From NCBI RefSeq assembly GCF_000026545.1, contig NC_011601.1: a DNA stretch of 64,000 nucleotides. One strand, given 5' to 3'. The stretch is from Escherichia coli O127:H6 str. E2348/69 (lineage in GTDB: Bacteria; Pseudomonadota; Gammaproteobacteria; Enterobacterales; Enterobacteriaceae). Positions 26,901 to 32,900 of the stretch are shown here, in pieces; position 1 is the first letter of the stretch; every line of letters begins with the position of its first letter. The position numbers were made by a program.

Positions 26901-29900
26901 CTGACGAGCTTATAGAAAAAGCTATTGCTTTCAAGCATGCGTATCGTCAGCAATATCAATATTACTTTGCAGATAAACAAATGTCTGCCAGGGGTTCGTA
27001 TGAGTATCGATGCACTACGATGGGCTAAAAAGGTGAAAACCGGCAGTTCATCCAGTAAGTCTGTATTGACCTGGCTTGCTGATATGTGCGGTGCCGATTT
27101 GTGTGCATACCCGTCTGTATCTGCACTGGCAGAAGTAACGGAACTGAACAAAAAGACTGTGCAGGACAGCTTACGACACCTGATGGAGATTGGGTTAATT
27201 GTTGATACCGGTGAGAGAAAAGGCAGAACAAAGCAAATTGTGGTGTACCGACTTATCGGTGTAGAAGAAAGTGTTGCCGAGCCTGAATACACCCAAAAAC
27301 GGGAGTCTTTAAAGGTGGGTAAAATCGGTGCTGTTAATAAAAACAGTACCGAAAATGGTTATGTTTCAGCACAAAACAGACCCAAAAACGGAACTCTTAG
27401 CTGCATGGAAAATAACCAAAGACACCCAAATTTTCCATCAAAGACACCCAAAAACGGATCACGGAACCCAAAGGAACCCAAAGAGCTAAACCCCACACAT
27501 AACGCACGCGAGAGTGCTCCGACCAGTGAGCAGAAAGTTTTGTCGTTACAGGCTGCACCTCCTGTATTCCTGGATGGCCTGAGCGAACCCATCGAAAAAT
27601 TTCCGATGACCGATAGCTGGTATCCGTCACGGGATTTTCGACGACGGGCTGCGTTGTGGGGGATGGCTTTGCCGGAGACAGAATTCACACCTGCTGAACT
27701 TGCCGCCTTCCGGGACTACTGGGCTGCTGAGGGGAAAGTGTTTACGCAGATTCAGTGGGAGCAGAAATTCGCCCGTCACGTAAATCACGTCAGGGCGCAG
27801 GTTAAACCAGTCAGCAAGGGGGTAAACCATGCAGCAGCACCAGGTGACACCGCATCACGGGCAGTTCAGGAAATTCGGGCAGCACGTGAGCAGTGGGAAC
27901 GTGAAAACGGATTTATCAGCGACGGAAACGGCCTGGAAGCTGTGGGAACTCATGGGGGAGGTTTATTCGAACCGCTGGACCCAGAAGAACGGGGCCGCAC
28001 CTTCGAAGCTCTGGATTGCACAGATTGGTGCGATGACTGAGCAGAAAATCCGACAGGTCTGCCGCCAGTGCATGGACCGCTGCCGGGCGGGTGAAACATG
28101 GCCTCCGGACCTGGCTGAGTTTGTGGCGCTGATTTCTGAAAGCGGAGCCAATCCATTCGGTCTGACGGTGGATGCCGTGATGGAGGAGTACCGTCGCTGG
28201 CGCAACGAGTCCTGGCGATACGACGGGAGCGATAAATACCCGTGGTCTCAGCCTGTGCTGTATCACATTTGCCTCGAGATGCGTTCAAAGGGGATTGAGC
28301 GGCAGATGACCGAAGGGGAGTTAAAACGGCTTGCAGAACGGCAGCTGACGAAATGGGCAAAGCATGTTAGTAACGGCCTGAGTGTTCCGCCAGTCCGGCG
28401 ACAACTGGCGGCACCCAAACGCCCGTCGGGGCCAACGCCAATTGAGTTGCTGAAACAGGAATATGAACGCCGGAAAGCGGCTGGGCTTGTCTGAGTTGAG
28501 AAGTAATTTTTACCGGGAGGAAATTTATGGAGACTGTTTTTGACGCACTGAAAGCAATGGGAAAAGCCACATCCATAGAACTTGCTGCGCGCGTGAAGAA
28601 GTGCTGAACGAACTATGGGAACTGAAAAAGGCTGGTTTTGTTGATAAAAGCGCGTACACCTGGCGTGTGGCTGATAACAACGTTCAGCAGGAACAGCCAG
28701 CGCAGGCAGAACTGCCGGAAGAAACCACCACAATGAGTGAAGTTATGCAGCGCATACTGGCATTTTATCAGGGAAATGTTCGATATTTTAGACGTTACTA
28801 GATTAAAGAGCATTAGTTCAGATGTGAATTGACATTGTGTGGCACAGGGTTGGGCTAGCGTGGGGGTTTGCTTTGTGTAAGAAACGGATGCTCTGCAAAT
28901 TACTACTAATGCTTAATGTTAGTCTGATCTGCTCCCCGATGATTAATACACCGCTATGTTAGTAATGTCTGTAGATCGCTGTGTGTTGCATCCATCGGTT
29001 GACCCCACAGTCCAAACCAGACTGTCAGCTTTGATTCGATTCTATCTACTCAACCTGTCAGGTAATGTCTGAGCTAATACACAGAGTACGGCTATCGCGA
29101 ACTTTAAGCTAGGTATCTGATACGCACCGTTCACTTGGTCGTACTTCTTGCACTGACTAGCTATCGTGCGCAGTTATTTATAGGTAATCTCCAGTGTATA
29201 ATTTTCCAACTTATGGGAGATTGTAAAACAGGAGGAATATATGAGGAAAAAATCGTTTGGACGTTGCCCGTTTGATTTCGACGAAGATGTAAAAAAAATA
29301 GCCGCGATAAATAAATATATCCATGCGAAATTTGAGAGGCATAAAAATAAAATAGATAACCTAAAGGGGGTGGAACAAAAATTGATGGTTTTACATTACT
29401 TTAATGTACTGAATGAACTTAGTAATCAGGCTATATTTTCTTTGAGTACCGGAGCCTTTTCAGCATCGGAAGTATTAACTAGAGTTATAATGGAACAGGC
29501 TGCCAATCAATTTTATATAGCAATTGATGATGGAAAAAATGCACAAGCATTACTCAAGGGTAGTAAGAAATTAGTTCATAGTAATGGGAAACGGTGGCTG
29601 GAGTGTTTAAAATCCAAAGAAATGACTAATCCAGCAGCAGATGAAAGGATTCGTATCGGAAAAGAGCTAACTGATATGTTTAATAGATTGTGGCCAAATA
29701 CACCTGAATATCCTGGAACCAAAAAGCTTTTCGAAGTAATTGGCTGGGAAACACACTATCATGCCTATTACGTCCCTCTTTGTGATTCAATACATACATT
29801 CTCTGATGATATGGCAAATATAGTATCTCTATATAATGCAATCCAAAGCGATAAAACTACTGCTATCGAACTCACTCTTGCAGTTAAACAAGAAAATAAA

Positions 29901-32900
29901 CGGCTGGCAATTTATAATGTCGTAATTGCTATTGGCCTGCGGTGTGAGGCCTTAGTAAATGTATTTAACTCTTTAGGTTATCGAGATATTATAACTGAAA
30001 TGGCGCCAACAATAGATGCAGTCAACCAGATTATAATTCGATATGATGATTTCGAACATTCCAGAATTTTTTATTGTCAATAATTAATTGGCAGAATTCG
30101 TACATGCACAACAACTAGTTATAGTTGACCTATTTCGCTCTTGAGAGACAACCATACTCAAATCTTCCACATTGCAGGAGATTTGAGTATGAATACGTCA
30201 CCGAGGAACAAAGACAGTATCATAGGCCCAAAAAGACCACTTCAGATATCTCATATCTGGGGGCTCCAAATCCGGCTTGAACTGGAAGGTAAAACGCGTG
30301 ATTTAGCTCGGTTTCAAGCAGAGCTACGGTGCTGCAACTGAAAAACTGGCAGTCCTATCCAATTTGAGATAACCAAAGGGACAAGAGAAGCTGTTTCTGC
30401 ATTGATAAAGCTTGGCAATTTACGCAGTAAAGACTACTTGTTCCGATCTCGGGTCGGTACTAACCAACACATATCAATCCTGCAATATAACCGAATCTTT
30501 CATAGGAGGGAGAAAAGCTTGGTCTCGAAGATTCGCTTTACAGCACACATTCCATGAGAAGAACAAAACCTTGCCTTGTCTGCAAGAAAACTAAGAATCT
30601 CCGGGTGATCCAACTTCCGTTGGGCCATAAGAAAACGGAAAGCACAGTTCGTTATCTGGGTATAGAAGTTGATGATGCATTAGAGATCTCTGAATCGATC
30701 GAAGTCTAAAGCTGTCAGGGCTGCAGCAGCAGCCCTGTGCCAAGAGCGTACCAATATATGTCTCAAAAAATTGGGCACAGGTCAATATCAATACCAACAA
30801 CTCTGATTGTGCTCATGTGATTTACTCCTGTAGAAAACGCAGACAGTAAAAATATTTCACTGGCTGCTTCAGACAGGGCGTCCATCATATCATTACATAA
30901 CAATAGCGGGGCACGATATCTAGACATGCAGCAACGATGGACATAGAATGAGTACAATCAAAAGCATGTTTAACTACTTTAATTTAAAAATCTTAGAATC
31001 TTAGGTGTAGAGTTCAATACTTAGTTACATACCCTTTTGAAAGCATCACAAATCATAACTATGAGCCTGTTAAAGGCATAGGTATTCTTAATTAAGAGCA
31101 TTTTAATGAGAGAAAAATAAAATGAAAAGACTATATTATACCCATCATGATAGTCGAACCTTAAAACTTGCTATAGAAGGTGATGTTTCTGATAATGCGA
31201 ATATTTTTACAGTAATTGTAGGTAAAAATGGCGTTGGAAAAAGCAGATTGTTATCTCAGATTGCTAAAGACTGTATTCAAGATATTCATTTCTTGAAAAC
31301 TTTTAATCCATTATTTGACAGAGAAATAACACCAAAGTTAATTGCCGTATCTACCAGCCCATTCGATAAATTCCCTCCAGGGCGTAGGTCATTAAATCAC
31401 CAAAGGAAAGAAAATAATTATCGCTATGTGGGTATGCGTGGAGAAGGCCCCTTCGGCGTATCAAATGCCGTATCCCTTTTATCTTCAGCAGCGAGAGGTT
31501 GGCTAGAGAAACTTGCTTATTCAGAAAATCCTGCAAATTTACTCGATGTTTTTCATTCTATTGATTTTGAGCCCCATATAGAGTTTGTATTTAAACCAAC
31601 TTACAACGGACCGGACACTCCTGACTATAACTTCATTGGTGTATATTCAGATGAGATATTAACGGAAGTTAAGGAGTTATATTTAAAATACAATATAAAA
31701 ATTGACAGGAAGAATATTGAGAGTCTCTTAAAGTTAAACTCCGAATCACGTCATGATATTTACGAAGCACTGGTTGAAATTAATCGATTTGAACCTGAAC
31801 GTAGGGCTGTAACCTTGTCAGTCGATTTTACCAATGGTGAAACATTGGTTGGCTCGACTTATGCGAATAATTATTTTTCTAGATCAATTCTTAAACTTAT
31901 GAACGCTGGCTTCATGAGATTGATGGATATGCGACTCATAAAAAAAAGCTATGGTCCCATGTCACTTAAACGTGCGAGCTCGGGAGAACAATGTTTATTA
32001 GTGATGTTGCTTGGAATTGCAGGGCATATAACTGATGGTTCTATAATACTAATTGATGAACCGGAAATAAGCTTGCATCCTCGATGGCAGGAAGAGTTTA
32101 TCATTATGTTAACAAAAGCATTTTTAACTTACTCAGGTTGTCAATTCATAATTGCAACTCATTCACCACAAATAATATCCAATTTGCCGAATAAAGGTTG
32201 TTATATAACATCTTTGTCGAAAAGTTATCTTTATAAAGCAAAATACTTTAGCAACCGGTCTGCAGACTATCAACTTGCGGAACTATTTGATGCCCCTGGC
32301 ATTATGAATGAATACATTGCCAGATTAGCTTTCAATTTACTTTCAAAAGTTAAGACTGCTAAGTTAGTAACAGATGATAATTGGCGTGAATTAAAACAAC
32401 TCCAGCTTCTCCTTGAAAACGTTAATAGTAATGACCCTATTAATGAACTCGTAAATTCCGTATCTCAGGTGTGTGAAATTTATGCCAAAAATTAAAAATC
32501 CAATTAGATTCAGCGCAGAGTCATTAGATATTATTGAGAAAAAATTGTCTTCTCCAGATTTTAAGCATACCAACTGGGGAGATGATGATTTGCAAGTTCT
32601 CCGTGCAGAAATTAGAAATCATTACAGAGAAGAACAAAAGCTAGAATGTGTATATTGTCATGAGCCTATTGGGGTAAGAGCTGCACAAGCTGCTCCTATA
32701 GAGCATATTGTGCCAAAATCTCAATATCTATGTTTTATTTTTGAACCTAAGAATCTATGTGTAGTATGTCCTGACTGCAATGAATTCAAAGGTAAAAATG
32801 AAGTGTTATTTGAACCCGTAATAAATGGGGGGCGGCGCAAAAACTATCCAACTGCATCTGCATCATTTCGCATCGTTCATCCACATATAGATGATTATGA

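Follow-up and report, generated by a model that had tools for sequence, protein, structure and literature searches.

A DUF5677 gene carried as hotspot cargo by a lambdoid prophage of Escherichia coli E2348/69: a candidate single-protein anti-phage factor

P2-like prophages have their classical Z/fun hotspot between G, a tail-fibre assembly gene, and FI, the sheath gene, and this slot is a known source of defence systems (10.1101/2024.10.15.618418; PMC13586616). Additionally, small serine recombinases mark defence genes (PMC13552941), and DUF5677 of Bacillota was flagged as enriched next to such recombinases, one open reading frame (ORF) of this kind beside a serine recombinase being challenged with six Enterococcus phages (bioRxiv 10.1101/2025.10.07.681051 v2). 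Here, we describe a DUF5677 gene of 280 codons in a 64,000-nucleotide stretch of the genome of Escherichia coli O127:H6 str. E2348/69 (NC_011601.1; the whole stretch is hereafter called the window). The gene is hotspot cargo, a 'moron', as it lies between phage core genes at a site that is variable among related phages. We propose, with a probability of about 0.5, that it is a stand-alone prophage accessory gene encoding a single-protein anti-phage factor, presumably with a catalytic activity. The gene is entered as follows.

29241-30083, plus strand: DUF5677-family gene, 280 residues, WP_001227887.1 (Pfam, PHROG, dN/dS, AF2)

This ORF, which starts with ATG and comprises 280 codons and a stop, is a genuine conserved gene and not a chance open frame. 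At the base composition of the low-GC (guanine plus cytosine) island in which it lies, 280 stop-free codons have a chance of 8e-10, shuffling the island 500 times produced no open frame above 175 codons, and the GC content of the ORF (0.36, in a stretch of 0.36-0.38 with flanks of ~0.50) is distributed over the codon positions as 0.46/0.32/0.27. The frame is intact in five sequences ~10% apart in nucleotides, and the ratio of non-synonymous to synonymous substitution rates (dN/dS) is 0.20-0.36; the ORF is under purifying selection. Thus the coordinates, strand, length and clean frame in AT-rich DNA stand as in the first-pass annotation, which was made from the sequence by itself, and the Ka/Ks comparison that it had put forward as a way to overturn the gene did not overturn it.

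The first-pass annotation had called the protein an orphan that fits no family, with DUF5677 as a guess. The guess was right and the orphan status was not, as the protein matches Pfam DUF5677 (PF18928) with 37.5 bits against a cut-off of 27.1 (E = 3.3e-9, residues 49-195) and PHROG 4167 over its full length (E = 1e-176), and its RefSeq name is 'DUF5677 domain-containing protein'. When 1.84 billion representative proteins were searched with a profile, 66 clusters (50% identity) came up at E <= 1e-3, nearly all of 270-300 residues, and the ORF protein itself falls in clusters that number 73 and 328 sequences. Each of the 45 aligned relatives matches DUF5677 (best E = 2.9e-19), and hmmscan of these 45 at E <= 1 gave, besides DUF5677, scattered single-member matches only; NCBIfam gave no match at E <= 1. 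Judged by these profiles, the DUF5677 relatives are a small family of full-length proteins. Only two papers name DUF5677 or PF18928 in their full text, and the accession numbers are absent from the literature and from the supplements of Rousset 2022. The gene is therefore an already annotated member of a known but uncharacterised family that sits in known hotspots.

The AlphaFold2 (AF2) model of the protein consists of ten helices at high confidence (mean predicted local distance difference test, pLDDT, 94.8; predicted TM-score, pTM, 0.91), which bears out the earlier view of an all-alpha protein. A Foldseek search of the model against the PDB and the BFVD viral models found nothing at E <= 1e-3, with TM-scores of at most 0.25, and the best match in a PDB sequence-profile search had E = 0.48. 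A membrane protein was considered and rejected: the highest hydrophobicity score of any 19-mer is 1.58, and that segment includes R and E and sits in a core helix of pLDDT 97. In the family alignment R81, E85, F164, Y173 and H185 are invariant, L79, N89, W119, P158, S183, D190, N193 and Y225 near-invariant, and E77, E170, D182 and E218 mostly conserved, giving the motif string LSRvxxExsvN, then DSxH, then SEDxxN; the window protein retains R81, E85, N89, Y173, S183, H185, D190, N193 and Y225. Much of this conservation gathers in one polar cluster, to which helix 3 contributes R81/E85/N89, the end of helix 7 D182-S-x-H185, helix 8 D190/N193 and helix 9 E218/Y225. Four helices of a confident model bear R, E, N, D, S, H and Y residues that are invariant or nearly so, which suggests an enzyme site, possibly that of a metal-assisted hydrolase acting on nucleic acid or a nucleotide; a structural or regulatory protein seems less likely. 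Variation is lowest in helices 7-8, where the motif lies. A hypervariable 'sensor' patch was sought among the close alleles and none was found, substitutions being evenly spread.

The DUF5677 ORF is the first gene of a 4.3-kb island with a GC content of 0.34-0.41 against ~0.50 in the flanks, inserted in a lambdoid, DicB-type prophage. To the left of the island lie the replication genes (a DnaT-like O analogue and P) and a truncated DUF1627 gene, and to the right hokD/rem/DUF968/rusA; within it, DUF5677 is followed by a dead gene for a ~200-residue tyrosine recombinase, the Septu genes PtuA/PtuB and an IS481-family element, as listed below.

30189-30709, plus strand: tyrosine recombinase pseudogene, ~200 residues, catalytic domain only (RefSeq 'frameshifted; internal stop')
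31122-32495, plus strand: Septu PtuA (PADLOC E = 1.9e-165)
32482-33117, plus strand: Septu PtuB (PADLOC E = 1.1e-83)
33372-34460, minus strand: IS481-family transposase (Pfam rve and HTH, RefSeq annotation), right island edge

At the left island edge, the DUF1627 gene (28527-28729) is truncated and frameshifted and marks the spot where low-GC cargo displaced the prophage backbone. At the right edge, the IS481-family element is a recent insertion, since the island of strain FORC_064 is otherwise identical and lacks it.

The window matches NZ_CP059840.2 at 100% identity. In a survey of 5426 complete E. coli genomes the gene was present in 59 (~1%), and its carriers include enteropathogenic E. 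coli (EPEC) E2348/69 and the extraintestinal pathogenic (ExPEC) strains S88 and IHE3034. The whole island recurs at >= 99% identity in 18 genomes, always with the dead recombinase and Septu, and the other 41 genomes have an allele that is 87-88% identical at the protein level. All eight sampled loci of that allele lie between G and FI of a P2-like prophage; they lack Septu, and the recombinase is intact (194 residues) in six of them and truncated in two. Both slots hold alternative cargo: the lambdoid slot between P and hokD contains DUF5677 and Septu here, PD-T7-1 in Ecol_517 and QueH/DUF977 elsewhere, and the P2 G-FI slot contains DUF5677 in S88 and a different gene in phage P24E6b. In other hosts, too, the GC content of the gene is below that of its locus, as in L005-L008, L011 and L012 (0.34-0.45 vs 0.46-0.59). 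Outside E. coli, a Buttiauxella genome carries the same cassette near a Tn3-family transposon, and another enterobacterium has the gene without the recombinase, downstream of guaA and beside a PLD-family nuclease gene. A tblastn search against plasmids found one 8.4-kb E. coli record only, which is probably an unplaced contig.

More distant homologues range from 25 to 53% identity overall, with 33-53% in Pseudomonas, Morganella and metagenomes. At 37-41% identity, homologues are found in both of the slot types seen in E. coli: behind the O/P-like replication genes of lambdoid phages (L038, L050, L063) and in P2-like tail modules (L039, L048, L051, L061). Those of ~25% identity are Tn7-like cargo beside an MmeI-type restriction-modification gene. 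In islands, homologues of 33-53% identity adjoin a CBASS cyclase with a SLATT_6 effector, GajA with DUF6119, RES, or RhuM, and 150 neighbour proteins at 23 loci include nSTAND3, Mrr, Type II/III methyltransferases and PDC-S05/S73, plus the products of housekeeping genes. All-against-all BLAST at 25 loci of divergent homologues found no neighbour gene family common to them, which argues that the protein works alone.

Several side observations concern these hotspots. Inverted repeats AATCTGACAGTCTGC / GCAGACTGTCAGATT bracket the Z/fun hotspot whatever its cargo, as in S88 (L002:8774-8788 and 11209-11223) and in L040 (627-636 and about 1521-1535). A third copy, CAGACTGTCAGCTTTGAT, lies at 29018-29035 in the leader of DUF5677, the lambdoid copy included, and homology to the guaA-linked copy (L005) starts just past CAGACTGTCAGCTTTGAT; these repeats may be old recombination joints. 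The 221-residue protein P0006 from an ENA contig is chimeric, its first part being 94% identical to ~1/3 of DUF5677 and joined to QueH (PF02677), and looks like a recombination joint of alternative cargo of the lambdoid slot. In Ecol_517 that slot (L019:3388-4737) holds PD-T7-1 (E = 7e-157), an intact small recombinase and an unannotated 326-residue protein. In the Pseudomonas-type P2-like sublineage (L039, L048, L051, L061) the DUF5677 homologue is always followed by a convergent gene for a SLATT_4 two-transmembrane effector, preceded in L039 (8902-11560) by a 348-residue protein and a SMEK-domain protein that matches PADLOC 'Aga_REase-PNTD' models; the L039 set appears to be a separate, unnamed three-gene system. 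The P2-like prophage of S88 also encodes a RelA/SpoT-like 'GTP pyrophosphokinase' (L002:1804-2883) between virion-morphogenesis and baseplate genes, possibly a toxSAS-type defence gene, and, directly after the recombinase and on the opposite strand (L002:10699-11076), an apparently multi-pass membrane protein of 125 residues.

Upstream of the ORF, the following expression signals are candidates.

28924-29240, plus strand: non-coding leader moving with the ORF; homology to the E. coli S88 P2-prophage copy begins at 28924
29174-29202, plus strand: putative sigma-70 promoter, -35 TTATTT at 29174-29179, 17-nt spacer, -10 TATAAT at 29197-29202
29186-29192 / 29216-29222, no strand assigned: 7-bp inverted repeat AATCTCC / GGAGATT bracketing the -10 box
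29230-29235, plus strand: Shine-Dalgarno AGGAGG, 5-nt spacer to the ATG

The main support for expression signals belonging to the gene itself is comparative. About 200-317 nt of upstream DNA recurs with the ORF in three or four contexts that are unrelated; copies from S88, AST215 and Buttiauxella align over the leader, and that from BS0013 only from ~29043. The TATAAT box is invariant across five sequences that differ by ~10% overall, and these five also keep the Shine-Dalgarno core AGG-G. Besides the putative promoter and the CAGACTGTCAGCTTTGAT copy, the leader contains no ORF of 50 residues or more, and an Rfam scan of 28400-31200 at E <= 1 gave no match. TTATTT agrees with TTGACA at only 2/6 positions, which is why the promoter escaped a consensus scan, and promoter-like sites in the region number seven, against 7.9 expected from shuffles, hence no excess. 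The inverted repeat is at chance level taken alone, and in S88 its arms read AATCTTC / GAAGCTT, with one compensatory and one broken pair. Its left arm lies upstream of any start set by the -10 box, so that, if functional, it would be an operator-like DNA element and not an RNA hairpin. The boxes with their 17-nt spacing, the Shine-Dalgarno and the repeat had all been noticed in the first pass, and each stands with a correction: TATAAT had been placed at 29202-29207, the Shine-Dalgarno spacer counted as 6 nt, and the repeat ended one position short.

A 35-nt inverted repeat of 77% complementarity (29154-29188 / 30892-30926) brackets DUF5677 and the dead recombinase gene; its arms overlap the putative promoter of DUF5677 and, ahead of PtuA, the best promoter-like site there (30921-30949). 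The repeat may be a relic or have arisen by chance; a recombinase-driven invertible element was considered on its account and is not relied on, the repeat being missing in S88 and Buttiauxella.

The small recombinase gene next door, rightly read in the first pass as dead and as separating the ORF from an ATPase-HNH pair, has an 82-bp deletion relative to intact copies, which takes out the catalytic Arg region, and frameshifts besides. Intact copies occur at L019:5055-5657, L020:5054-5656, L021:5054-5656 and L073-L080:5001-5603, and the Phage_integrase model of Pfam is matched by intact relatives. Two independent losses of the recombinase, by the deletion here and by truncation in AST215 and L032, left DUF5677 intact. 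The recombinase family is very large (at least 7989 clusters at E <= 1e-20) and unusually conserved, members from Proteus, Providencia, Pantoea, Idiomarina and Cycloclasticus being 77-95% identical. One identical recombinase was found in at least six Proteus contexts with TIR, SMC-like ATPases, SIR2+DUF87 and DUF3800, further Proteus neighbours being Lit-type Peptidase_U49, Fic and prophage tail ends; the E. coli recombinase flanks PD-T7-1, hsdR, reverse transcriptase and dynamin-like genes, and in marine bacteria the recombinase flanks metal-resistance genes and an IS element. By analogy, this small enzyme may be a tyrosine counterpart of the serine recombinases that mark defence genes. Two hairpins flank the gene.

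30153-30191, plus strand: perfect 13-bp hairpin CATACTCAAATCT / AGATTTGAGTATG, burying the recombinase start codon
30716-30737, plus strand: GC-rich hairpin CAGGGCTGC-AGCA-GCAGCCCTG after the recombinase stop, without a T-run

The first hairpin is kept in five genomic contexts, is 15 bp long in other strains and shows one compensatory pair in Buttiauxella; it probably throttles translation of the recombinase. The second is kept in 4/5 aligned recombinase contexts, S88 diverging just before it.

We propose that the soluble all-alpha DUF5677 protein would be the product of a self-contained 'moron' gene of mobile elements, in which the leader, the -10 box and a strong ribosome-binding site would permit expression from the repressed prophage. 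The gene may have entered the lambdoid prophage as a cassette of leader, DUF5677 and the ~200-residue tyrosine recombinase, which would have inserted next to the unrelated Septu, in the variable slot that follows the replication genes; afterwards the recombinase would have decayed and DUF5677 would have been held by purifying selection, and the lysogen would be protected against other phages by one protein alone. It is consistent with such a defence role that the slot occupied here holds PD-T7-1 and the same recombinase in Ecol_517. A bolder version, tentative and rather doubtful, is that DUF5677 is a new single-protein anti-phage family, with a novel fold and catalytic site, which the minimal recombinase moves between hotspots as a mini-cassette.

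Several points weigh against an anti-phage role. Defence by a DUF5677 protein has not been reported in any experiment: in the sole reported test, activity was seen for five candidates, the Bacillota DUF5677 not included (bioRxiv 10.1101/2025.10.07.681051 v2), and the ORF was dropped from the published version (PMC13552941). PADLOC-DB 2.0 returned 0 families at E <= 0.01, and tblastn against 50,697 phage records (INPHARED) gave no match. Several homologues stand among chromosomal genes (LysR, OprD, GNAT), so that the association with defence genes is not universal. The -35 box is poor and the promoter is statistically indistinguishable from chance. Finally, at position 268 the window protein has Y where 84% of the family has H, and part of the putative active site may thus be altered in the enteric subfamily.

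Some of these points favour a prophage accessory gene that has a non-defence role, in counter-defence, in lysogenic conversion or virulence, or in stress metabolism, and merely shares its hotspots with defence genes, an explanation that we take seriously and consider somewhat unlikely. Such hotspots do carry non-defence cargo, including partition systems, the cytolethal distending toxin and tail-fibre swaps (PMC9122126; 10.1101/2024.10.15.618418), and the negative outcome of the only phage challenge of a family member (bioRxiv 10.1101/2025.10.07.681051 v2), the housekeeping neighbours at some homologues and the presence of the gene in EPEC and ExPEC strains would all fit. However, homologues also lie outside prophages, where they are cargo of Tn7-like elements or, in chromosomal islands, direct neighbours of CBASS, Gabija, RES and restriction-modification genes; counter-defence genes are not expected in such places. 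Moreover, counter-defence proteins are typically small inhibitors, and a protein of 280 residues with an enzyme-like core is unlike these. An abortive-infection RNase of the HEPN type, a HEPN-fold toxin that would cleave RNA upon infection, had been the first-pass guess and is improbable: a sub-bundle of the model does superpose on minimal HEPN domains at 2.1-3.3 A, but the alignment of 45 sequences shows no conserved Rx4-6H motif, R267-x5-H273 being confined to close relatives, and none of the 45 members matches a HEPN-type Pfam profile at E <= 1.

The two remaining explanations would tie DUF5677 to a neighbour. As an accessory or regulatory factor of the recombinase, acting on directionality or target selection, it would form one functional unit with that enzyme, which is suggested by the adjacency of both genes, which in P2-like prophages of E. 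coli and in Buttiauxella share a strand with a gap of 105 nt, by a 53%-identical recombinase adjoining a 35%-identical DUF5677 in P. fluorescens, and by the reported enrichment of the Bacillota DUF5677 near serine recombinases (bioRxiv 10.1101/2025.10.07.681051 v2). We nevertheless find it very improbable, given that recombinases 92% identical, or identical within Proteus, stand beside many unrelated cargo genes without DUF5677, that most DUF5677 homologues have no recombinase nearby, and that DUF5677 is constrained and intact where the recombinase is dead or truncated. The independent single-gene module of the first-pass annotation consequently holds in that the recombinase decayed twice and no partner is conserved, and has to be qualified in that the two genes form a cassette in E. 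coli and Buttiauxella. A role as regulator or third component of Septu, to which the ATPase-HNH pair belongs as PtuA/PtuB according to PADLOC, is hardly credible. Both are present in 18/18 E. coli islands of the lambdoid context, but all 18 are nearly identical (>= 99%) and hence no repeated association; they are one lineage, so that the linkage is by descent and not by function. Septu adjoins the gene in 18/59 E. coli carriers and in no other taxon's copy, so that the presumed independence from the pair is upheld by 41/59 carriers and every other taxon, in which DUF5677 occurs without an adjacent PtuA/PtuB, and at the locus itself the dead gene and the separate promoter-like site at 30921-30949 intervene. 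Septu is adjacent cargo of the island, outside the DUF5677 unit.

Whatever its function, the gene is a clean example of modular cargo exchange, as lambdoid and P2-like prophages and the vicinity of a Tn3-family transposon all harbour the cassette of leader, gene and recombinase, which lacks the recombinase where it lies downstream of guaA; the small enzyme is a possible marker for mining variable defence cargo. If DUF5677 is anti-phage, a one-gene system with an unseen fold would join the defence catalogue, and the presence of the gene in ~1% of complete E. coli genomes and in two textbook prophage hotspots would be explained; if it is moved as a mini-cassette, the small recombinase would be bait for new systems in Enterobacterales. 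If it has no defence role, it would be one more annotated prophage gene with a domain of unknown function. The gene is a sensible candidate for testing and, on present evidence, not a new kind of system.

In conclusion, this work places a DUF5677 gene among several described systems, each of which it resembles in part. To DUF5677/PHROG 4167 it belongs by direct sequence membership, although the Pfam model spans residues 49-195 only, whereas the subfamily here has ~280-300 residues with extra conserved positions in helices 9-10. With the HEPN abortive-infection proteins (AbiV, AbiD/F, HepT) it shares the all-alpha structure and the defence-island context, yet, at twice a HEPN domain's size, it has its conserved residues on other helices. 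Septu is its immediate neighbour in the same low-GC island, but is a different system that has no components in common with it and is linked to it in one island lineage only. The P2 Z/fun exclusion genes are comparable in that the 87-88% allele sits in the same G-FI slot. The DUF4238 system (Rousset et al. 2022, PMC9122126) likewise consists of one protein, of unknown fold class, and lies in a prophage hotspot; the protein described here differs from it in having no sequence relationship to DUF4238 or PADLOC models and in that the window copy is lambdoid and not P2-like. Finally, as in RADS (PMC13552941 and its preprint), a small site-specific recombinase stands beside variable, mostly defence, cargo, the recombinase here being a ~200-residue tyrosine and not a serine enzyme, and the hosts being Enterobacterales.

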